Origin: Candidatus Heimdallarchaeota archaeon
Lineage (GTDB): Archaea > Asgardarchaeota > Heimdallarchaeia > Hodarchaeales > Hodarchaeaceae
NCBI GenBank assembly: GCA_020353515.1
Contig: CP070695.1
Coordinates: forward strand, 928,299-992,298
Direction: 5' to 3'
DNA: 64,000 nucleotides
Program-made: the position numbers and the translations under genes
Notes under the pieces: generated by a model
The model's database searches: none
What the model was told of the DNA's origin: nothing
What the model saw: only the letters and a program-made list of their open reading frames with translations
Shown here: one piece after another, positions 33,108 through 43,355 of the stretch
How the letters are laid out: every line of letters begins with the position of its first letter
Position numbering within the stretch: position 1 is the stretch's first letter

Positions 33108-35693
33108 TCATTTTGGTTTTAGAATTACCTTAGCTTCCCGATTGGCTATCGGGAATTGTTCCACTGAATTATATTCGATCAACATCAGATGGTATTGCCC
33201 TTCCATCCACAAATTAAGTGCCTGGTCAGCATAATGAGGATTGGATGGATTTCCACTGACACCTGCGGGAATTACACTCCAACTATTAGAAATATTGTTA
33301 AAATCGACAACCATTCGTTCACTGGGGCCTACTCGTGGTGCACGACCTCCAGCAAGCAAAGGAGTATAACTAGAACCGTCGTGGGGGTAGTTCCCAGCAC
33401 TAAAAGCTGGAATACCACCTAAATGATTGAAATGCATTCTATGATACTCACCCCATTTCCATTCTGAAACATCTGAACCCAATATTTCTTCTAGGTCCTC
33501 AATTGCTTTCAAGAATCCTTTGACGATTATATCGTCTCGTTTTTCCACTAATGGAGTTGTGACATTGTCGAACCATTTAGATTCTGGAAAGTTGCGAACT
33601 AAGAATTCTAACGTGTTATCCTGAGGTTTAGTGACATCTATTTCAGCTTCATCATAATCATCTTGCCAAACAAATTCCCTGAATCGCGATAATGTTGCAT
33701 CGAAGATTGTTGGCCCCACCAGCTCTTTTTTCATTAGGTAACGATCATCACTATTATTCCAGGTTTTTAATTTGGCTAAAGCAATAGTTGCGGTGTCTGA
33801 AAGAGTTTCTCCAGATTGGTCAAAAGCATCTAGAAAGTAGGGAGTAAAAGCCTCAGCACTAATGTCAAAGATTCCCCAATCTCCACATTGCAGTTTTTTC
33901 ATAAAATCAACATCAATTGTCCCAGGTTGAGCTTCATTTAGGAAACGATTAATGCATCTGGCGCGATACCCTGGGTCTTGGGTACTACTAATATAGTATG
34001 GATAGTCGGGTCCAGTTGATTTTTGGTTTGCCGAAGCAAGATAGTTCTGGGGAGGATTTAGATCATAAGGAAGTTCATTAAAAGGAATATAATCCCAGTC
34101 TTTGTCAAGATTGGAATCCGACCCATTTTGAATAAATCGTCCTTGGTAAGCTTGAGTAAAGTTTCTTTTTATTATTCTACCTGTGGGTCTCAAAGCAATA
34201 TTTCCTTCAGTATCTGCAAAAACTACATTGATTGTGGGACTGGAAAACCATTGCATTGATTCGTTAAATGTCTTCCAATTTGTAGCTGTATTTACACCAT
34301 ACATTGCTTTAATCTCATAAGTAGGACTTTCAGTAGTAATCCAACGCATGGCAATGAGCTTTCTTCCCATCTCCTCTGCCATTACTACTCCGTCTTCGGT
34401 ATATCGAATCGTTTCAGTGTGATTATTAAGGCCCTTTACTGGAATAGTTATGATTCTTTCTTCTGGAGACTTCCATTTGTTTTCAGATCCACTCCAGTAT
34501 TGAGAGGAGGAGTCATCCCAGATATATTCGTACCAATCAAGTGCATCACTTGATACATAGGTTATCCCCCACGCTACATGTGTATTGAATCCAACGATAA
34601 CTATTGGAGTGCCTGTTAAAGTATATCCGTATATATTCATCTTAGGTTTAGACACAACTAGATGCGCTTCATACCATATATGTGGAAGTGTTATTTCTAA
34701 GTGCATATCATTTGCCAGCATGGGCATACCTGTTACGGTTTTTGAACCATTTACAGCCCAATTATTTGAACCTACTCCAGATTCCTTAAGAAATCGTACA
34801 CTATCGGGAATACGATTTAGGATCTTATTAATCGCTGAAACACGAGCTTCAATATCATCATCTGTACTATGAATAGGCTCTAGATTCATCTTCATTTCAT
34901 TAGAAGGAAGAGAATAGTTTCCGTATTTTGGAATGACTGGGACTTGATAGTATGACTGATTAAGTGGGAAAATCTCATCCATAGCGGTCAAATTACCATT
35001 GAATAATTTATCTCGCAATATGGTAGCTTGTAAATCATATGTAGAATAAGTTCCACTGAGACCCATTAAAAGATTGTAAACAAAAGTCTTAAGGGGGGTC
35101 CATGGTGAGGGTTTAAACCCTAATAGTTGAAATTCTATTGGTAATGTCTTTGTATTTGTTCGATGATTGATTTCGTAATTGGCTCCCTCACAATAACTAT
35201 CCAGAATGTTTAACATTTCATCTAAGGTATTATCATTCTTGAATGTATCTAACATTTCTTGAGCTGTTTTTTCTATCCCAATTGTTTGATAAAAAATGTC
35301 ATCTTCAAGAGAGGAATTACCTAATATCTCTGCTGTTCGTCCCATACCAGTTCGAGCAATCATTTCCATTTGAAACATCCTGTCAGTTGCATGGCAATAC
35401 CCTAATGCAAAAGCAGCATCCTTGTGAGTTTCTGCATAAATATGGGGGATTCCCCAATTGTCTCTGATAATGGTAACAGTATTATCAATACCTTCAAGTG
35501 TAATTGTGTCAGAAACATAATCTGATCCTTTTGATGCACCAAAAATCCCTCCAGGAGACACAATCGGTCCGAGAGCGAACATTCCCATTATTGGGGTCGA
35601 AAGAATTAGTACTAAGAGCAAAACCCCTCCAATTGAAATTGTAAGAAGTGCTCCCTGTTTATATAAATCACGAGGAAGTGACATTTTAATCAC
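33108..35693 (-). CDS. Penicillin/AHL acylase family Ntn-hydrolase (peptidase S45), N-terminally membrane-anchored
   Basis: The autoprocessing/nucleophile site is GVGSNNWAVNGSKTVTG. The N-terminal TM helix is ALLTISIGGVLLLVLILSTPIMGMFAL. Its length of about 860 aa is typical of the family. Confidence 0.85.
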   Translation of the reverse strand: MIKMSLPRDLYKQGALLTISIGGVLLLVLILSTPIMGMFALGPIVSPGGIFGASKGSDYVSDTITLEGIDNTVTIIRDNWGIPHIYAETHKDAAFALGYCHATDRMFQMEMIARTGMGRTAEILGNSSLEDDIFYQTIGIEKTAQEMLDTFKNDNTLDEMLNILDSYCEGANYEINHRTNTKTLPIEFQLLGFKPSPWTPLKTFVYNLLMGLSGTYSTYDLQATILRDKLFNGNLTAMDEIFPLNQSYYQVPVIPKYGNYSLPSNEMKMNLEPIHSTDDDIEARVSAINKILNRIPDSVRFLKESGVGSNNWAVNGSKTVTGMPMLANDMHLEITLPHIWYEAHLVVSKPKMNIYGYTLTGTPIVIVGFNTHVAWGITYVSSDALDWYEYIWDDSSSQYWSGSENKWKSPEERIITIPVKGLNNHTETIRYTEDGVVMAEEMGRKLIAMRWITTESPTYEIKAMYGVNTATNWKTFNESMQWFSSPTINVVFADTEGNIALRPTGRIIKRNFTQAYQGRFIQNGSDSNLDKDWDYIPFNELPYDLNPPQNYLASANQKSTGPDYPYYISSTQDPGYRARCINRFLNEAQPGTIDVDFMKKLQCGDWGIFDISAEAFTPYFLDAFDQSGETLSDTATIALAKLKTWNNSDDRYLMKKELVGPTIFDATLSRFREFVWQDDYDEAEIDVTKPQDNTLEFLVRNFPESKWFDNVTTPLVEKRDDIIVKGFLKAIEDLEEILGSDVSEWKWGEYHRMHFNHLGGIPAFSAGNYPHDGSSYTPLLAGGRAPRVGPSERMVVDFNNISNSWSVIPAGVSGNPSNPHYADQALNLWMEGQYHLMLIEYNSVEQFPIANREAKVILKPK

Positions 35694-36397: not shown

Positions 36398-37150
36398 TCA
36401 TTGATTTAATAAATCTTGCATCCCAGCAATAGCTGTTTTTATTGATTCTACATGACCTGCTTTTTTATTCATGATCAAATCCCCAGTGTCAAAATCACCA
36501 ATAGCTGCCATTATTGCTCCCGTTTTCCATCCTCTGATGCTTCCCAAAATGAAGAGAGTTGAGACTTCCATCTCTGTAATAAGAGTCTGTCCCCGTTTCC
36601 ATGTCTCCCATCTTTCAATAATATCTTTCTTTGCAGGTATCATTTCAGGTTCTTCACTCCAAAAGGCATCTTTTGAATGAACAATACCTTCATGAAAACG
36701 ATCTTGAAGATTGAGATCATATGCCCCCTGTCGTAAAGCGAAAATAACATCGGGATGAGCAACTGCAGGAAACTCTGGAGGTAGGTACTGCTTAGTAGTC
36801 CCTTCATCACGAATTGCACCAATAGCGGAGACAATATCTCCTAGTTTAACTTGGGGATTCAATATACCAGAAGTCCCCACACGAATGACAGTCGTGATTT
36901 GACATCTTCCGAATTCCTCCAATCCAACAGCAGTAGAAGGCCCCCCAATCCCCATGCTTGCTACAATAACTGGGTTTTCATCGATGTATGCTAGGAATGT
37001 TCGATATTCACGGTTGAATGTAAGCTCTTGGGGATCTTGCAAGTGTTGAGCGATGGCTTCTGTTCGTGCTGGGTCACCAACTATGAACATATGCCGAGCT
37101 CCCTTTAAATCTTCTTTTGATAAGTTAATATGATAATGTTTCATAACCAA
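36398..37150 (-). CDS. Nucleoside phosphorylase family 1 (uridine phosphorylase/PNP-UDP_1)
   Basis: FIVGDPARTEAIA, SMGIGGPSTAVGLEE, IRVGTSG, EMEVSTLF. Confidence 0.8.
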   Translation of the reverse strand: MVMKHYHINLSKEDLKGARHMFIVGDPARTEAIAQHLQDPQELTFNREYRTFLAYIDENPVIVASMGIGGPSTAVGLEEFGRCQITTVIRVGTSGILNPQVKLGDIVSAIGAIRDEGTTKQYLPPEFPAVAHPDVIFALRQGAYDLNLQDRFHEGIVHSKDAFWSEEPEMIPAKKDIIERWETWKRGQTLITEMEVSTLFILGSIRGWKTGAIMAAIGDFDTGDLIMNKKAGHVESIKTAIAGMQDLLNQ

Positions 37151-37168: not shown

Positions 37169-37522
37169 CTAGAGAGGTTCCCAAACAAATCCAGATTTCA
37201 TTTTTCCATCAATTTCTCTAACAGGTTTCCACACAGCTCTAAGTTTCATTCCTAACTCAATATCATCTGTGTCAATATCTAACTGGCCCGTATATCGTAC
37301 TTCTCCAAGATCAACTATACCTAATAGGAGCGAGGATTTCTGAATACCTGATGGAGGAGCCTTCAAAATTGTATAAGTAACTAGAGAACCAATAGAGGGC
37401 AGCTCCACCTCTTGAAAATCCTGATGTTTGCACTCAAGACATCGTCCATGTTTTGGATAATGAACTTTGCCACAATTCAGACATTTATATCCTTTTGGTG
37501 TTCTTTCAGCCATTAAAATCAC
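37169..37522 (-). CDS. DUF35 Zn-ribbon + OB-fold protein (thiolase-associated scaffold family)
   Basis: The rubredoxin-like motif is CLNCGKVHYPKHGRCLECKH, followed by an OB-like beta-rich segment. It sits 2 nt downstream of the thiolase-fold gene. Confidence 0.8.
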   Translation of the reverse strand: MILMAERTPKGYKCLNCGKVHYPKHGRCLECKHQDFQEVELPSIGSLVTYTILKAPPSGIQKSSLLLGIVDLGEVRYTGQLDIDTDDIELGMKLRAVWKPVREIDGKMKSGFVWEPL

Positions 37523-37524
37523 CT

Positions 37525-38706
37525 TTAAACTATCGAGAGGATAGTGACAACAACATTATTACCAAATCCACCAAAATTAACTGCATATGCATGTGTAGGA
37601 TTATTAGGAATTTGTCGTTCTCCTGCTTCACCTCTAAGTTGCCATACTAATTCACAGAGTTGAGCAACTCCAGTTGCACCAACAGGATGACCACGGGCTT
37701 TCAAACCCCCTGAAGGATTGACTGGAAATCGGCCATTAATTTCTGTTTCACCCTCACGAATCGCAAGATGAGCTGTTCCTCGTTCGTAAAATCCTGCTGA
37801 CTCCAATTCGGCAATTTCTAATATTTCAAAAGCATTGTGCACTTCTGCGAAGTCTATGTCCTCTTTCTTCAATTTAGCCATCGTAAATGCCTGGTCAGAA
37901 GCATCGCTAACAGCTCTAAGAAAAGTTGGATCTTCACGTTCATGAACAGCCATAGTATCCATACCTTGTCCTGTTCCACTGAATTTAATTTGTTGGTTTT
38001 CTGAAAATTCTTTTGCCTTATCAAGTGAACACATTATAATAGAAGCTGCTCCATCAGTAACAGGACACATATCATATAGATGCAAGGGATCTGCTATCAT
38101 AGGATTGTTCAATTTAGCTTCACGAGATGTCAATATGCCTTCCAGGGTAATCTTTTGCTGTATATGAGCATAAGGATTCATTAAACCATTATTATGATTT
38201 TTAATAGCAATTCTAGCAAGATCTTCTGATGTGACCCCATATTTTTTGAAGTAAATTCGAGCAAGCATTGCACCGAGAGAAGGAAATGTAATACCGTAAA
38301 TATATTCGGCCTCTGGGTGTGACATGGTAGCAATGAAGTCAGTAACTACTGGTCCTGGAGCCACACGCATTTTTTCCCCACCAGTGACCATAACACAGTC
38401 GTGAATTCCTGAAGCAATGGCCATATACCCTATACGAGCTGCTGTTCCCCCTGATGCTGGACCATTCTCAATAGAAGCACCAACAGCTGGGAATAGATTC
38501 AGGTAGTCGATTAAAGCGGAACCTAATGCGGTTTGGTTATTAATTCGTCCAGCTCCCATGTTGGCAACAAATACTGCATCAATTTCATCTGTTCCTGCAT
38601 CGTTAATTGCGTCTAGTGAAGATTCCGCCATCAATTCAACGAGGGACCCATCATAACGTCCCCACTGACTCCCCATACCTACTCCAATAATGACAACATC
38701 ACGCAT
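37525..38706 (-). CDS. Thiolase-superfamily (SCP-x/archaeal thiolase-like) protein in which the nucleophilic Cys position is Pro
   Basis: Thiolase blocks: MRDVVIIGVG, IENGPASGGTAARIGYMAIASG...VTGGEKM, VNPSGGLKARGHPVGATG. The N-x-C-x-S-G nucleophile motif reads N-G-P-A-S-G (Pro83, codon CCA, plus-strand tgg at 38458-38460). Confidence 0.75.
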   Translation of the reverse strand: MRDVVIIGVGMGSQWGRYDGSLVELMAESSLDAINDAGTDEIDAVFVANMGAGRINNQTALGSALIDYLNLFPAVGASIENGPASGGTAARIGYMAIASGIHDCVMVTGGEKMRVAPGPVVTDFIATMSHPEAEYIYGITFPSLGAMLARIYFKKYGVTSEDLARIAIKNHNNGLMNPYAHIQQKITLEGILTSREAKLNNPMIADPLHLYDMCPVTDGAASIIMCSLDKAKEFSENQQIKFSGTGQGMDTMAVHEREDPTFLRAVSDASDQAFTMAKLKKEDIDFAEVHNAFEILEIAELESAGFYERGTAHLAIREGETEINGRFPVNPSGGLKARGHPVGATGVAQLCELVWQLRGEAGERQIPNNPTHAYAVNFGGFGNNVVVTILSIV

Positions 38707-39424
38707 TTAACCATTCTTCCTTCTTTTTGCGTGTGATTTGAAATATGACATCTTCAGGGAGAATTATATATTTTTTACACATTTCTATCAAATCCTCAGG
38801 TACAGGACGTTCTCCAAAGAGACGTTCTGGGATAACATAACTTTCCCAATTTTCTTTTGTTAGACAATATGAGGGGACCCCACCTAGTTCATGTTCTACT
38901 TCGAGACGTGGCTCGAGCCGTAGTTCTTCCATCCATCGTCGGAACCCAATCGGAGACTCTGCTACAATGTAAACTTCTTCATTTCCCAAAAGAAAATGAT
39001 TTTCCATCTTAGCCACAAATAAATGAGCGCCAACACGAAGACCTCTTTTGAATGTCATTGTGTGAAGGCTCATTCCAATTTTAGGATTAACAGTCAAACG
39101 GCTGTTGACAAGGCCTAATACCTCACCAGTATTCCCATCTTGCCCAAGAATAACATATTCATCATGAACTCTGTAATTAGTATAAGCTAATAGTTCCCCT
39201 AATATCCGAGCACCTACAATATCATAATATTGATAGTCTGTGAGTCTTACAATATCATAGAATAATGGAATAACTTGTTTTACCTCATCCCGTGAGATTT
39301 GGCGAACTACCATCTTGGTACCGTCAACTAAATTGATATACTTTGGTGGATAAGGTGTATTTTCTGGGTTTATCTTATTTTGTGGAGGACGTAACATTTC
39401 TTCATCTATTGACATCGTTCTCAT
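38699..39424 (-). CDS. Hypothetical protein, possibly GNAT-fold acyltransferase-like (241 aa)
   Basis: An 8-nt overlap with the thiolase-fold gene implies one operon. There is a weak GNAT-like pattern: EVLGLVNSRL ... KRGLRVGAHLF. Confidence 0.35.
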   Translation of the reverse strand: MRTMSIDEEMLRPPQNKINPENTPYPPKYINLVDGTKMVVRQISRDEVKQVIPLFYDIVRLTDYQYYDIVGARILGELLAYTNYRVHDEYVILGQDGNTGEVLGLVNSRLTVNPKIGMSLHTMTFKRGLRVGAHLFVAKMENHFLLGNEEVYIVAESPIGFRRWMEELRLEPRLEVEHELGGVPSYCLTKENWESYVIPERLFGERPVPEDLIEMCKKYIILPEDVIFQITRKKKEEWLNA

Positions 39425-39606: not shown

Positions 39607-40881
39607 ATGAAAGATAGAATGGATCTACTAATTAAAAATGCTTATACACGAGATGGAAAATTAGTAAACATCTTAGTTGAATACGGAATGATAAGAGAGA
39701 TTACAGGTAAAAAATTGAAAGAAGCTGACCAGACTATTGATGCCAAGGGTTCCTTAGTGACCGAAAGTCTCATTAGCCCTCACAATCATTTAGATAAGGT
39801 TTTAATTGGTGATATTATTGAACCCAATGAATCAGGGACACTTTGGGAAGCTATTCAAAAAACATGGGAAGTTAAAAGGAATTATACAGCGGAGGAAATT
39901 TATCAACGAGCGAGTCAGGTTATTGATCATCAAATAAAATACGGGGTAACGCACTTCCGAACACATGTAGATGTTGATTCTATTGGAAAGCTTACACCCC
40001 TTAAAGGCCTCCTTGCAGTAAAAGAAGCCTATAGGAATATTATTGAGCTTCAAGTTGTTGCTTTTCCTCAAGAAGGAATTTTGAAAGATGAAGGGACTGA
40101 GGATTTATTGTATTCTGCCATGGAAACTGGTGCGAACCTAATTGGTGGTATGCCTCATAATGAGTTCACTCCTCAAGATTCCCGACACCATATTGACATT
40201 TTGTTTGATATTGCAAAACAATTTAATGTCGATATTGATTCTCATACAGACGAAACTGATGATCCCAACTCTCGAACCCTACAGTACCTTGCATCTAGCA
40301 CAATTAAACGAGATTATCGTGAAAGGGTTTCTGTAGATCATATTTGTTCTCTAGCTGCTCAGAATGACTATTATGCAAGTCGTATTATTGAATTAGTCAA
40401 GTTAGCAGAGATTAACGTTATAACAAATCCAGGAACAAATATGGTTTTGCAAGGTAGATTAGATAATTATCCAAAACGAGTTGGAATTACAAGAGTGAAA
40501 CAATTAGTTGAGGCAGGAGTAAATGTCACTGCAGGCCAAGATTGCATAAATGATCCGTATTATCCCTTTGGGAAAGGAGATATGCTCGAGGTGGCCTTAC
40601 TACTTGGTCATGCCGCCAAACTGACTACTAATAATGAAATCAACAGCTTATATGACATGATTACTTATAATGCCGCTAAAACGATGGGGATTTCTGACCA
40701 TAGGTTAGTTGAGGATACACCAGCTAATCTTGTCATTTTACATGGTGTGAAGACTGTAAACGAGGCAATACGAAAAACACCTCCCGCACGTACAACCATT
40801 AGAAAAGGGAAAATTATATCAAAAACTTCTCTCACAGAAGAGCAATATTATGAGGTAGAAAAGCCTAAAACAAAGAATTAA
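39607..40881 (+). CDS. Amidohydrolase-superfamily deaminase, cytosine deaminase (CodA)-like
   Basis: SPHNHLDK (HxH-type metal site), RTHVDV, HTDETDD, GQDCINDPYYPFG. Confidence 0.7.
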   Translation: MKDRMDLLIKNAYTRDGKLVNILVEYGMIREITGKKLKEADQTIDAKGSLVTESLISPHNHLDKVLIGDIIEPNESGTLWEAIQKTWEVKRNYTAEEIYQRASQVIDHQIKYGVTHFRTHVDVDSIGKLTPLKGLLAVKEAYRNIIELQVVAFPQEGILKDEGTEDLLYSAMETGANLIGGMPHNEFTPQDSRHHIDILFDIAKQFNVDIDSHTDETDDPNSRTLQYLASSTIKRDYRERVSVDHICSLAAQNDYYASRIIELVKLAEINVITNPGTNMVLQGRLDNYPKRVGITRVKQLVEAGVNVTAGQDCINDPYYPFGKGDMLEVALLLGHAAKLTTNNEINSLYDMITYNAAKTMGISDHRLVEDTPANLVILHGVKTVNEAIRKTPPARTTIRKGKIISKTSLTEEQYYEVEKPKTKN

Positions 40882-41371
40882 TTATAGATACTATCGTTAT
40901 TCCGATCCAAAGGACAATTAAACTAAGTTCTGGAAGAATTCCAACTCTTTTATAGGTCAGATCGGGCATTCTTAAGAAAACCAATTGTCGAATTTTATCC
41001 GCAATAGGATGAAGATAATAGCTCTTCCCCCAATCAGGTTGGCTTTTACGTGAAGCGATATTCCGTAAAGTATACCAATCCCATAAATCAGGTAAATTTG
41101 CGAAAAGCATTCCTAGCCAATACTCCCAAATACAGAGTCCGATAATTACAAATCCAATCAAATACACGAAAATATGCCAGGTAAGCCAAAAATTATCATG
41201 AATCCTTTCTGGAGGGTGGTAAGTAAATCTAGCTAGGGCATCTAAAAGAAAATGAGAGGAAAAAGCGATAACAACTACTAGAATCGCAGAAAACCAATTG
41301 GAGGGTGGAATTATTGCATAAATCGTGAATTGAACAATAATCCCTGCTATAAGATGTGTAGGAAGTTGCAT
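40865..41371 (-). CDS. Membrane protein, possibly YdjM/DUF457-type membrane-bound metal-dependent hydrolase
   Basis: MQLPTHLIAGII at the N-terminus and SHFLLDALARFTYH, plus 4-5 TM helices. Confidence 0.45.
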   Translation of the reverse strand: MQLPTHLIAGIIVQFTIYAIIPPSNWFSAILVVVIAFSSHFLLDALARFTYHPPERIHDNFWLTWHIFVYLIGFVIIGLCIWEYWLGMLFANLPDLWDWYTLRNIASRKSQPDWGKSYYLHPIADKIRQLVFLRMPDLTYKRVGILPELSLIVLWIGITIVSIINSLF

Positions 41372-41390
41372 TTTCGGACTACCACGGATT

Positions 41391-41999
41391 TTACGATTTG
41401 TGTGAGGATCTTTGATATAAGAACCATACTAAACTAATAATCCAAAAAACTAGAACTAATATTAATAATCCAAATTTAAGAGTAGCAAAAAAAGAAGCAA
41501 GGAAGGGGGAGAATGTAGGAAAGTTTGAGGGAGAAGACAGCATTAAAATGAGATTTAAATTCTCGATAGCGTCAAAGAGGGCAGCTATAAAGGGTACTAT
41601 TGTCATGTATAAGCCAACTAGTTGTATTTGCCCAGATAACAACTTTCGTACAATTAATAATGTAATTCCTGCAAGAAATGTCGAATAAGCCAGGAGGAAC
41701 CCATAATCTATGTAGGTTACTGTTAATTCTTGAGTAATTAGTTCTTCTGTCCATGTTCCGAATATTTGTTCTATTTGTTCCATTGTCCAAGCAAATTCTA
41801 ATTCCATTACTCCGTATGGGCTAGCAGCCTTCAATGCAGCCTCCACAGGACGCATTAATAGAAAAATGATTACTGAAGCGATAGCAGCCAATCCAGTCAG
41901 AATGATAACAATTTTTTGAGAGGGAGAGGTTTCTAGCTTTCGTATAAGAGGATTATTCATATTGTTCAACTCAATGATTATCACACTTAGGCTTAACAA
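41391..41999 (-). CDS. Integral membrane protein of unknown function (202 aa)
   Basis: Several hydrophobic helices. A 7-nt overlap with the upstream PhnN-like gene suggests co-transcription. Confidence 0.5.
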   Translation of the reverse strand: MLSLSVIIIELNNMNNPLIRKLETSPSQKIVIILTGLAAIASVIIFLLMRPVEAALKAASPYGVMELEFAWTMEQIEQIFGTWTEELITQELTVTYIDYGFLLAYSTFLAGITLLIVRKLLSGQIQLVGLYMTIVPFIAALFDAIENLNLILMLSSPSNFPTFSPFLASFFATLKFGLLILVLVFWIISLVWFLYQRSSHKS

Positions 42000-42655
42000 T
42001 CTATTTTTTTGGTGGATTGATATATCTTTTCTAAATATTCACTCATTTCATGAACCGCGGCATTAAGATCACCATTATTGTGAATAACTATATCTGGTAA
42101 AGGTATGTCAATCTTTTCATGCATACGGTTAATTCTCTCATGCAAAAGACTTGTATTTTCCCTCCCTCGTACTTTTAAACGAGTTTCAGCCACCTTATTC
42201 TCTACTTCAATCAAAATTATTTTAGATTGAGGGTATTTCTTCCGAGCTTCATAGAGAATACTACGAGAAACATTCACAAGAACTATTTCTCCTCGTTGAA
42301 GAGGCTCTTCAAGTGTCATTCGTGGGCATCCATACCAATTGTTATAGACATACCAAGATAAAGCAAATTCATTCTTTGCTTTTTTCTGTAGAAATTGTGT
42401 CTCGGATATATAGAGGGAATTTTCAGTTTCATCTGATGGTCTCGTAATATATCTCTGTACTATATTAACTGGAATCTGTTTTTCAAAGAGATTATTTGAA
42501 GCTAGTCGCATTATTGTATCTTTTCCACTACCTGATTTCCCTACTACAAAAACCAGCAAATCACTAGCAAGCTGAGATTTTATATTATCTGATTCCACTT
42601 TAGTAGACCACGAAACTTGATTTATGATTATTATAACATGATCTTGTTTTCTCAT
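41993..42655 (-). CDS. phnN: Ribose 1,5-bisphosphate phosphokinase (PhnN family)
   Basis: Block-by-block resemblance to E. coli PhnN as I recall it: VVGKSGSGKDTIM (P-loop), VQRYITRPSDETENSLYISETQF, FALSWYVYNNWYG, VLVNVSRSILYEARKKY, RLKVRGRENTS. Confidence 0.8.
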   Translation of the reverse strand: MRKQDHVIIIINQVSWSTKVESDNIKSQLASDLLVFVVGKSGSGKDTIMRLASNNLFEKQIPVNIVQRYITRPSDETENSLYISETQFLQKKAKNEFALSWYVYNNWYGCPRMTLEEPLQRGEIVLVNVSRSILYEARKKYPQSKIILIEVENKVAETRLKVRGRENTSLLHERINRMHEKIDIPLPDIVIHNNGDLNAAVHEMSEYLEKIYQSTKKIDC

Positions 42656-42818: not shown

Positions 42819-43355
42819 ATGGCCAAATTTATTTTTAAAATTGTGTTGATTGGGGATGGGGCCGTAGGAAAGACATCCATCCGACGTAGATATATGGGTG
42901 AAGGGTTTCGAACAGACTTTCTAGCTACTATGGGAGCAGATTTTGCATATCTTAAGACCAATATTGATGGGAATGAAATTGAGTGGCAAATTTGGGATCT
43001 CGCGGGCCAACCAGCTTTTAGAAACGTTATGAAAGCTTATTTTAAGGGTACAATGGGTGCATTAGCAGTTTATGATGTTTCTCAACCTGATACATTAGAA
43101 AATATCGATTCCTGGACACAAGAGGCTCAATTTCATGCGAATACTTTTTCGGAACTTCCCATTGTGATAGTTGGGAATAAAATAGATTTACGAGAAGAGA
43201 TTCCCAATTGCACGAAGACAATCAATGGTTTTGTAAAAGCAAAATCTTTAAATGCAGAATTCATTGAAACATCAGCTAAAACGGGAGAGAATATTGAAGA
43301 TGCTTTTGCTAAACTTGCTCATCAAATTATGAAAAAAACAAATGAATTAATCTAA
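42819..43355 (+). CDS. Ras-superfamily small GTPase, Rab/Ras-like
   Basis: G1 is LIGDGAVGKTS, switch I is LATMGADF, G3 is WDLAGQ, G4 is GNKIDL and G5 is ETSAK. It is 178 aa with no C-terminal Cys. Confidence 0.85.
   Translation: MAKFIFKIVLIGDGAVGKTSIRRRYMGEGFRTDFLATMGADFAYLKTNIDGNEIEWQIWDLAGQPAFRNVMKAYFKGTMGALAVYDVSQPDTLENIDSWTQEAQFHANTFSELPIVIVGNKIDLREEIPNCTKTINGFVKAKSLNAEFIETSAKTGENIEDAFAKLAHQIMKKTNELI

Follow-up and report, generated by a model that had tools for sequence, protein, structure and literature searches.

A widespread gene module with a thiolase-fold protein lacking the catalytic cysteines in a Heimdallarchaeota archaeon, and its possible place in anaerobic N-heterocycle breakdown

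Gene organization of the locus

We have analyzed a unit of three genes in a stretch of 64,000 nucleotides from Candidatus Heimdallarchaeota archaeon (GenBank assembly GCA_020353515.1, contig CP070695.1, positions 928,299 to 992,298 of the forward strand), which we refer to as the window. The genes encode, in the order of transcription, a protein with a predicted GNAT fold, a thiolase-fold protein without both catalytic cysteines and a DUF35 protein (Table 1). An earlier note on this DNA had singled out the thiolase homolog and had overlooked that the three genes, here called the trio, recur as a constant module in hundreds of species of bacteria and archaea. It had also not seen that this module is linked to AllFGH-like, cyclase-family and xanthine-dehydrogenase-family genes and, in the window, to pyrimidine genes. 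The trio very probably encodes a genuine multi-subunit enzyme, and one that is not a thiolase.

The three open reading frames (ORFs) lie on the minus strand. The GNAT and thiolase-like genes overlap by 8 nucleotides and 2 nucleotides separate the thiolase-like from the DUF35 gene, a spacing that the earlier note had given in the same way. A uridine-phosphorylase-like gene begins 18 nucleotides 3' of the DUF35 gene on the same strand. Given this spacing and the shared strand, the operon probably comprises four genes with the uridine-phosphorylase-like gene as the last. A spacer of 182 nucleotides parts the trio from a divergently transcribed cytosine-deaminase-like gene. The lack of a 3-hydroxy-3-methylglutaryl-CoA (HMG-CoA) synthase in the operon had been pointed out before, and none lies adjacent to the trio either.

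Table 1. Features of the locus, in positions of the window
Feature	Position	Strand	Remarks
GNAT-fold subunit gene (predicted fold), first of the unit	38699..39424	-	241 amino acids; no Pfam model for the family
Thiolase-fold subunit gene without both catalytic cysteines	37525..38706	-	393 amino acids; PF00108, PF02803, PF22691
DUF35 subunit gene	37169..37522	-	117 amino acids; PF12172 and PF01796
Uridine-phosphorylase-like gene	36398..37150	-	PF01048; TIGR01718 206 bits, below the cut-off of 280
Cytosine-deaminase-like amidohydrolase gene	39607..40881	+	Amidohydro_3; PRK07572 368 bits, below the cut-off of 438
PhnN-like ribose-1,5-bisphosphokinase homolog (context only)	41993..42655	-	TIGR02322 138 bits, below the cut-off of 156
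Pro83 codon CCA, position of the nucleophilic Cys	38458..38460	-	codon reading and Protein Data Bank (PDB) alignments
H290-N291-A292-F293, position of HDCF	37828..37839	-	6ESQ alignment
GHPVGATG (residues 339-346), thiolase His loop	37669..37692	-	PDB alignments; invariant in the family

Loss of the catalytic cysteines in the thiolase-fold protein

The 393-amino-acid protein matches the Pfam models Thiolase_C_1, Thiolase_N and Thiolase_C, and it scores 418.9 bits with the NCBIfam model NF004720 (cut-off 420). The alpha-beta-alpha-beta-alpha fold of thiolases is present. On the minus strand the codons GAG AAT GGT CCA GCA TCA GGG encode E80-N81-G82-P83-A84-S85-G86, and in phmmer alignments Pro83 falls on the nucleophilic cysteine of 7YVY from Pyrococcus furiosus and of 6ESQ from Methanothermococcus thermolithotrophicus. 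HNAF (residues 290-293) aligns with the HDCF motif of 6ESQ, which means that the second catalytic cysteine is lost as well, and the C-terminal loop reads NFGGFGNN without a cysteine. Hence neither a nucleophilic cysteine nor an acid/base cysteine, be it in HDCF or in a C-terminal CxG motif, was found. The earlier note had already seen the proline in place of the nucleophile and the lack of a CxG cysteine, and the codon and the alignments to both structures bear this out. It had also stated that the fold blocks including GHPVGATG are kept. Indeed, NPSGGLK and GHPVGATG are both retained in the alignments to solved structures.

The substitutions are a property of the family. Of the best 120 homologs, 118 cover the ENGPASG site and 115 of these have proline there; alanine replaces the HDCF cysteine in 119 of 120. 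All 76 thiolase-like genes that are linked to the 241-amino-acid family in other genomes combine ENGPASG with either HDAF or HNAF. A sequencing error at the proline codon, which the earlier note had named as a way in which its reading might fall, and a pseudogene are both ruled out by the conservation of the proline throughout the family and by the intact ORFs. When 69 full-length sequences from many phyla are compared, an identity of at least 97% is reached at 112 of the 393 positions. What were once the loops of the active site, namely ENGPASG, E-H-x-AF, N-x-SGGLK, GHPxGATG and NFGGFGNN, make up the invariant blocks. H290, N330 and H340, the His of HDxF, the Asn of NPSGG and the His of GHP that form the oxyanion hole and stabilize the enolate, are invariant.

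Cys214 in the motif D-x-C-P-V is invariant, too. A cysteine is also found here in the canonical thiolase L002 and in the paralog L003 of the same genome (see below), and 6ESQ and 7YVY have a serine. A shifted nucleophile at Cys214 can be ruled out because the canonical L002 carries a cysteine at the same place. In our reading of the alignment Cys214 may mark a position of the pantetheine tunnel.

Since both catalytic cysteines are gone, the thiolase-fold subunit should perform neither thiolysis nor Claisen condensation. Judged by its sequence, the 393-amino-acid protein is not a thiolase, and the family-wide loss of the cysteines agrees with the earlier note, which had argued against a conventional acetoacetyl-CoA thiolase. 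The homologs carry the database name 'acetyl-CoA acetyltransferase', which is a misnomer that runs systematically through the databases. An ordinary acetoacetyl-CoA thiolase for entry into the mevalonate pathway would fit this name and the 42% identity to the 6ESQ thiolase. However, such a function is already contradicted by the cysteines that are missing throughout the family, there is no adjacent HMG-CoA synthase, and a canonical cysteine-bearing thiolase is encoded elsewhere in the genome. We consider the chance of this explanation to be practically nil.

The canonical thiolase (389 amino acids, with EAACSSS and HDCF) lies within L002:434-3860 (C1:3917535-3920961) and is flanked by genes for a zinc alcohol dehydrogenase and for a 403-amino-acid fusion of DUF35 and a short-chain dehydrogenase. 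By analogy, this set resembles a fused version of the complex of ketothiolase, DUF35 protein and ketoacyl-CoA reductase that has been proposed for archaeal fatty-acid synthesis (bioRxiv 10.1101/2024.07.05.601840). The earlier note had suggested a look for a cysteine-containing thiolase next to an HMG-CoA synthase. The thiolase is found in L002, but no HMG-CoA synthase lies next to it. The HMG-CoA synthase model PF08540 has no match in the source genome, and the only HMG-CoA-synthase-like match is a 576-amino-acid ORF on the minus strand (L004:985-2715, C1:482705-484435) that scores 184 bits with TIGR00748 (cut-off 353). This ORF has no Pfam match and carries a cysteine-rich C-terminal extension with a zinc-ribbon-like CPKCG motif; it may be a fusion of HMG-CoA synthase and DUF35. 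A third thiolase-like gene (L003:707-2655, C1:1706660-1708608) encodes 422 amino acids with DNGGNTGG, without the nucleophilic cysteine, and with HDAF. Its best NCBIfam match is PRK06365 with 322 bits, below the cut-off, and it is followed by a gene for a DUF35 protein of 222 amino acids. The nucleophilic cysteine is thus missing in two of the three thiolase/DUF35 pairs of this genome, and therefore these two cannot be thiolases. Counts of such pairs in Asgard archaea that have been interpreted as a sign of fatty-acid synthesis (bioRxiv 10.1101/2024.07.05.601840) are among the reconstructions that go wrong here.

Structural placement among thiolase-fold systems

The AlphaFold2 model of the 393-amino-acid protein (predicted local distance difference test score, pLDDT, 89.6) is closest to 6ESQ_A, with a Z-score of 59.7 and a root mean square deviation of 1.6 Å over 383 residues. 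It is followed by 7YVY (Z 56.3), the SCP2 thiolases (about 54.8), BbsB (54.2), ST0096 (4YZO, 54.0), PhlC (53), TbSLP (49.6), Ltp2 (48.3) and Sal (47.3). The phmmer E-values are 1.8e-76 for 6ESQ and 1.4e-84 for 7YVY. With the thiolases 6ESQ/6ET9 and 7YVY (PFC_04095) the protein shares its length and the His/Asn loops EVH, NPSGGLK and GHxxGATG. As in the archaeal thiolase/HMG-CoA synthase/DUF35 complex, a small stand-alone DUF35 gene is found next door and the unit has three genes. The 6ESQ complex differs in having the nucleophilic cysteine and HDCF where proline and HNAF are found here. Its third partner is HMG-CoA synthase instead of the 241-amino-acid protein with its predicted GNAT fold, and it serves isoprenoid synthesis, whereas the context here points to N-heterocycle catabolism.

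PhlABC and MucABC (5M3K, 9VBO) are multi-component acyltransferases in which a thiolase-fold and a DUF35 protein form a complex with another subunit, and the Z-scores of our model to PhlC/MucC-type chains are 51-53. In these systems the third subunit is KAS-III/HMGS-like and not a GNAT protein, and they serve the biosynthesis of secondary metabolites. Cys88 of PhlC, which we take to be the catalytic residue and which appears in the title of entry 9SKM (C88S), has no counterpart here, and the trio has no KAS-III-like partner of the PhlA type. ST0096 of Sulfolobus tokodaii (37% identity) has an archaeal-type thiolase fold without a cysteine at the nucleophile site (NTSGSGG). In ST0096 the replacement is serine instead of proline, and the equivalent of HDCF differs too. 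TbSLP of Trypanosoma brucei (5AB4-5AB7) likewise has a thiolase fold without a nucleophilic cysteine, but it carries YDCF, lacks a DUF35 or GNAT partner and is eukaryotic, and its function is debated. It binds malonyl-CoA and decarboxylates it slowly, with a kcat of 0.005 per s (PMC12329534).

The earlier note had drawn an analogy to the aldolase Ltp2. Ltp2-ChsH2 and Sal-Shy (6OK1, 9MYR; PMC12329534) possess an SCP2-type thiolase fold without the nucleophilic cysteine, DUF35 is their obligatory partner, and they carry out C-C chemistry through an acyl-CoA enolate with no covalent intermediate. By this analogy the trio would be an aldolase-type lyase for a small 3-hydroxyacyl-CoA, which would undergo a retro-aldol or aldol reaction; DUF35 would be an obligatory partner, and the GNAT protein would supply or remove the acyl-CoA. 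Ltp2 and Sal are clear structural relatives, DUF35 is present here as well and the enolate-stabilizing residues are retained. However, the motifs YDHF of Ltp2 and YDCY of Sal each hold the catalytic tyrosine (PMC12329534). This tyrosine is replaced by the His of HNAF, and the third position is alanine and neither His nor Cys, an equivalence that is transitive via HDCF of 6ESQ. For this reason the analogy fails. In addition, the DUF35 protein is free and not part of a MaoC-type hydratase, no hydratase was seen in the window or in 80 trio loci, and there is no steroid context. A structure-guided alignment, as the earlier note had envisaged, places the protein nearest to the archaeal thiolases and farther from the aldolases. 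An aldolase-type lyase therefore appears improbable.

The earlier note had also considered a non-catalytic scaffold. The thiolase-like protein would then bind CoA or acyl-CoA and organize the complex, and the GNAT protein would do all the chemistry, for example an N-acylation of a ring-derived amine or ureide. Non-catalytic paralogs do occur in related condensing-enzyme systems. The loss of both catalytic cysteines would agree with such a role, as would the high conservation of the GNAT family itself (see below). A scaffold fits poorly with the pattern of conservation in the thiolase-like protein, which is concentrated on the active-site remnants including N81, G82, P83 and both histidines. 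This is unusual for a dead site, although ligand binding could explain it. We regard a pseudoenzyme scaffold as unlikely, if somewhat less so than an aldolase.

Instead, non-covalent enolate chemistry seems most likely for the thiolase-fold subunit, because H290, N330 and H340 and the CoA tunnel are kept, which would allow the protein to polarize a thioester and to stabilize an enolate. Among the known cysteine-less thiolase folds, H-D/N-A-F with proline represents a fourth active-site solution, and the trio has the first GNAT partner among DUF35-scaffolded complexes. Both the GNAT third partner and this active site are new for DUF35-scaffolded thiolase-fold complexes.

The GNAT-fold and DUF35 subunits

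The 241-amino-acid protein has no match in Pfam, NCBIfam or the PDB sequences. Its AlphaFold2 model (pLDDT 88, predicted template modeling score, pTM, 0.86) retrieves the GNAT structures 8OSP, PatZ, PA3270 and FdhC in Foldseek at an E-value of 3e-7. With VIA-align the best Z-score is 12.9 (3GYA) and 185 chains reach a Z-score of at least 8 among 48,161 representatives; all of the 50 matches listed are GNAT-fold. The protein is thus predicted to have a GNAT fold, which agrees with the earlier note that had described the product of the first gene as GNAT-like and not an HMG-CoA synthase. In 24 diverse members of the family 51 columns are invariant. H121-T122, E156-S157 and H178 are invariant in these members, too, and are candidate catalytic residues. 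At the expected place between strand 4 and helix 3 the loop K-R-G-L-R-V-G-A is found, a near-variant of Q/R-x-x-G-x-G/A, which we read as a putative variant of the GNAT pyrophosphate-binding loop; the protein as a whole matches no curated GNAT sequence model. The family is isolated in sequence space, with 210 of 1.84 billion cluster representatives at an E-value of 1e-3 or below, most of them fragments. The ESM Atlas gave just unnamed or generic acetyltransferase clusters, and a search for fusions of the GNAT protein found a single longer protein (449 amino acids, no Pfam match) that was uninformative.

The 117-amino-acid DUF35 protein consists of zf-ChsH2 and OB_ChsH2_C, that is, a zinc ribbon with four cysteines (C14, C17, C28 and C31) and an OB fold. 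Wherever the flank extends that far, its gene comes directly after that of the thiolase-like protein. By analogy to other DUF35 systems, the DUF35 protein would hold the thiolase-fold and the GNAT-fold proteins together in one heteromeric enzyme.

Distribution and genomic companions of the trio

We could confirm the 241-amino-acid family in a minimum of 559 species genomes. Among the carriers are Hodarchaeales/Heimdall-type Asgard archaea, Undinarchaeota, Moorella, Neomoorella, Bipolaricaulota, Acidimicrobiia, Verrucomicrobiota, Elusimicrobiota, Riflebacteria and others. Among 80 loci, the order GNAT, thiolase-like, DUF35 on the same strand is kept wherever the flank suffices. Of 201 Asgard genomes sampled, 8 carry the family. 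All 8 belong to the genus of the source archaeon, and no match came from the remaining 58 genera. We found no publication that describes the trio of DUF35, thiolase-like and GNAT proteins, and none on anaerobic barbiturate, ureidomalonate or malonamate describes it.

About 22 bacterial loci share one same-strand arrangement, in which the trio precedes AllH-, AllF/FdrA- and AllG-like genes in this order. Then come, in some cases, a gene for a 249-amino-acid protein without Pfam match and after it a PF04199 cyclase-family gene and genes for subunits of the xanthine dehydrogenase (XDH) family. The cyclase-family and XDH-family genes are usual companions of the trio. AllG was present in all 17 trio genomes tested. 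In the Asgard sample it is found in 8 of 8 trio genomes against 7 of 193 genomes without the trio, and in a sample of 151 genomes from the phylum of Moorella in 4 of 4 (all within 6-10 kb) against 22 of 147, base rates for which we give no P value because related genomes are not independent samples. In distant lineages whose trio stands alone, an AllG-like gene and a cyclase of the same subfamily (57-74% identical) were encoded elsewhere in five of five genomes. The distance between AllG and the cyclase was about 400-600 bp in four of these; in the Undinarchaeota genome the two are on separate contigs. Thus, in the samples tested the trio is always accompanied by an AllFGH-like system, and the reverse does not hold.

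AllFGH of E. coli is an oxalurate phosphorylase/oxamic transcarbamylase that converts N-acylurea and phosphate to an amide and carbamoyl phosphate (PMC11326118). It is not homologous to the trio and is relevant here as a constant genomic companion in the form of AllF-, AllG- and AllH-like genes. In E. coli, which is without the trio, the substrate of AllFGH is oxalurate, and the oxamate that is formed is not used further.

Within the genus of the source archaeon (21 genomes) the cytosine-deaminase-like (CodA-like) gene and the trio occur together in 14 genomes and are both missing in 7. For AllG the distribution is 13 with both, 1 with the trio only, 3 with AllG only and 4 with neither; for the cyclase it is 12, 2, 3 and 4, respectively. 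AllG and the cyclase are 9-33 kb apart in related genomes. The CodA-like gene adjoins the trio in all 13 Asgard loci and in Moorella naiadis, and the proteins from both sources belong to the same cluster. A uridine-phosphorylase-like gene is found in 4 and a PhnN-like kinase gene in 10 of the 13 related Asgard loci, which hints at a handling of the ribose moiety. In Moorella naiadis the row consists of XDH subunits, a xanthine/uracil permease, PucR, the trio, the CodA-like gene and a cytosine/uracil permease. Two Actinomycetota loci contain an AtzD/TrzD ring-opening amidohydrolase inside the operon. We have rejected an AtzD-type hydrolase as a core partner: of five trio genomes checked only one contained it, and the two species of the Moorella group among those tested gave no match.

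The trio of Neomoorella stamsii is immediately preceded by genes for CoA-transferase A and B subunits, BKACE, a cyclase-family protein and a type-II thiolase (L021:560-6869). The BKACE protein scores 395 bits with the model for 3,5-dioxohexanoate:acetyl-CoA acetone transferase, below the cut-off of 430. These genes may belong to a separate phloroglucinol-type pathway beside the trio and for this reason we gave them no weight.

Partner genes in the source genome

The partner genes are scattered over the source genome. Genes for the 2Fe-2S and Mo subunits of an XDH-family enzyme, an acyl-CoA dehydrogenase and AllF- and AllG-like proteins are at 3.716-3.723 Mb, an AllH-like gene at 3.528 Mb (C1:3528305-3528631), a cyclase-family gene with 71% identity to the bacterial copies at 4.258 Mb and a carbamate kinase gene at 4.830 Mb. 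An ORF of 177 amino acids that follows AllG in L086 was tried as AllH and rejected (BLASTP E-value 0.74). The acyl-CoA dehydrogenase gene is directly upstream of AllF/AllG (L086:8082-9338, plus strand), and its best match is AcrC, an acryloyl-CoA reductase, with 248 bits, below the cut-off. A EutA-like protein (462 bits) is encoded near AllF/AllG at L086:792-2243 on the plus strand. A second copy of the cyclase gene at C1:804442-804815 covers only the C-terminal part in two frames with an in-frame TGA and is probably a pseudogene.

Discussion

A functional link between the trio and the pathway of the AllFGH-like enzyme and the cyclase is likely in our view. The trio would act in one pathway with an AllFGH-like enzyme, a cyclase-family metal hydrolase and an XDH-family hydroxylase in the oxygen-free breakdown of an N-heterocycle. 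Uracil or cytosine is the most likely substrate, since the neighboring genes are cytosine-deaminase- and uridine-phosphorylase-like and uracil and cytosine permeases and PucR are found in Moorella. That the ring is a pyrimidine at all seems to us an evenly balanced matter. The best explanation overall, which we put forward tentatively and with a little less than even confidence, is that the CoA-dependent trio converts a malonyl-type remnant of a pyrimidine into acetyl-CoA and CO2.

In such a pathway, uracil derived from cytosine or uridine would be hydroxylated by the XDH-type enzyme to barbiturate (malonylurea), and opening of the ring would yield ureidomalonate. The AllFGH-like enzyme would then remove the carbamoyl group of ureidomalonate as carbamoyl phosphate, and malonamate would remain. 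The GNAT subunit might detach the malonyl group from the nitrogen of malonamate or ureidomalonate and load it onto CoA, and the cysteine-less thiolase site might decarboxylate the resulting malonyl-CoA to acetyl-CoA and CO2. A beta-carboxy thioester is a plausible substrate for a nucleophile-free thiolase fold because TbSLP decarboxylates malonyl-CoA, albeit slowly. The exergonic decarboxylation would pull the uphill transfer of the acyl group from nitrogen to sulfur. In the 6ESQ complex, too, an exergonic second step reportedly pulls the first. This malonyl-to-acetyl-CoA chemistry in particular is doubtful. An equally speculative extension is that the trio is a channeling enzyme at the end of an oxygen-independent 'oxidative' pyrimidine pathway, in which GNAT works in reverse and energy is conserved twice per ring. 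If true, the phosphorolysis by the AllFGH-like enzyme would yield ATP via carbamoyl phosphate, and both folds would have found a new catalytic use.

Several observations weigh against parts of this interpretation. About 32 loci, which is about half of the bacterial loci, have unrelated and uninformative neighbors. Several genomes, among them three from the genus of the source archaeon, have AllG and the cyclase but no trio, which makes the trio an accessory to the pathway and not one of its core steps. The CodA-, uridine-phosphorylase- and PhnN-like proteins all score below the equivalog cut-offs, and the substrate was deduced from neighboring genes alone. A hydantoinase/dihydropyrimidinase homolog in the source genome is above the cut-off (398.5 bits), so that a reductive pyrimidine route may exist. 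As for the enzyme itself, we infer the three-protein complex from the structure of the operon and from other DUF35 systems. In the fold searches the GNAT model looks like a common N-acetyltransferase, and among the 100 fold matches listed for it there is no malonyl-CoA decarboxylase and no GNAT-L of CurA, two enzymes with a catalytic pair of His and Ser/Thr. Furthermore, we know of no precedent for a GNAT protein that works in the N-to-S direction.

The same complex might also act on another heterocycle, either an s-triazine or cyanuric-acid-like compound or a purine via oxalurate. The AtzD-like gene in L051 passes the NCBIfam model for cyanuric acid amidohydrolase (461 bits, cut-off 360), and therefore an s-triazine ring fits this gene as well as barbiturate does. 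The relatives of CodA include s-triazine hydrolases, with weak matches to N-ethylammeline chlorohydrolase. PucR belongs to a family of regulators of purine catabolism, and the breakdown of purines and allantoin is the best-known setting of XDH-family enzymes and of AllFGH (PMC11326118). However, the products from s-triazines or oxalurate, biuret and oxamate, lack a beta-carboxy or beta-keto carbon skeleton that an acyl-CoA-binding enzyme with a thiolase fold could use, as we conclude from their chemistry. The AtzD family was found in only one of the five trio genomes tested, and the contexts in the window and in Moorella indicate uridine, cytosine and uracil. We see a small but real chance for such a substrate, and favor a pyrimidine.

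At least 559 species genomes carry a trio family that is named as a thiolase, and metabolic reconstructions that use these names are wrong on this point. The strict co-occurrence with an AllFGH-like system defines a testable anaerobic route for N-heterocycles, which is probably energy-conserving, and with Moorella and Neomoorella cultured carriers exist.

Further observations

The hydantoinase homolog (C1:4824146-4825495) and the carbamate kinase gene (C1:4829553-4830518; 369 bits, above the cut-off) are about 4 kb apart, and a second set of XDH-family genes (C1:4790597-4794290) lies about 30 kb from this pair. This stretch may represent a second catabolic region for N-heterocycles. At 40865-42655 on the minus strand of the window, two genes for multi-pass membrane proteins without Pfam match come after that of the PhnN-like kinase. 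At 33108-35693, also on the minus strand, lies the gene for a penicillin-amidase family protein of 861 amino acids (PF01804, 596 bits) with an N-terminal hydrophobic segment. Ras/Rab-like small GTPases, which are typical of Asgard archaea, are encoded on the plus strand in the window (42819-43355) and at L086:13816-14358, with PF00071 scores of 153 and 51 bits, respectively, and one of these genes adjoins the AllF/AllG cluster.

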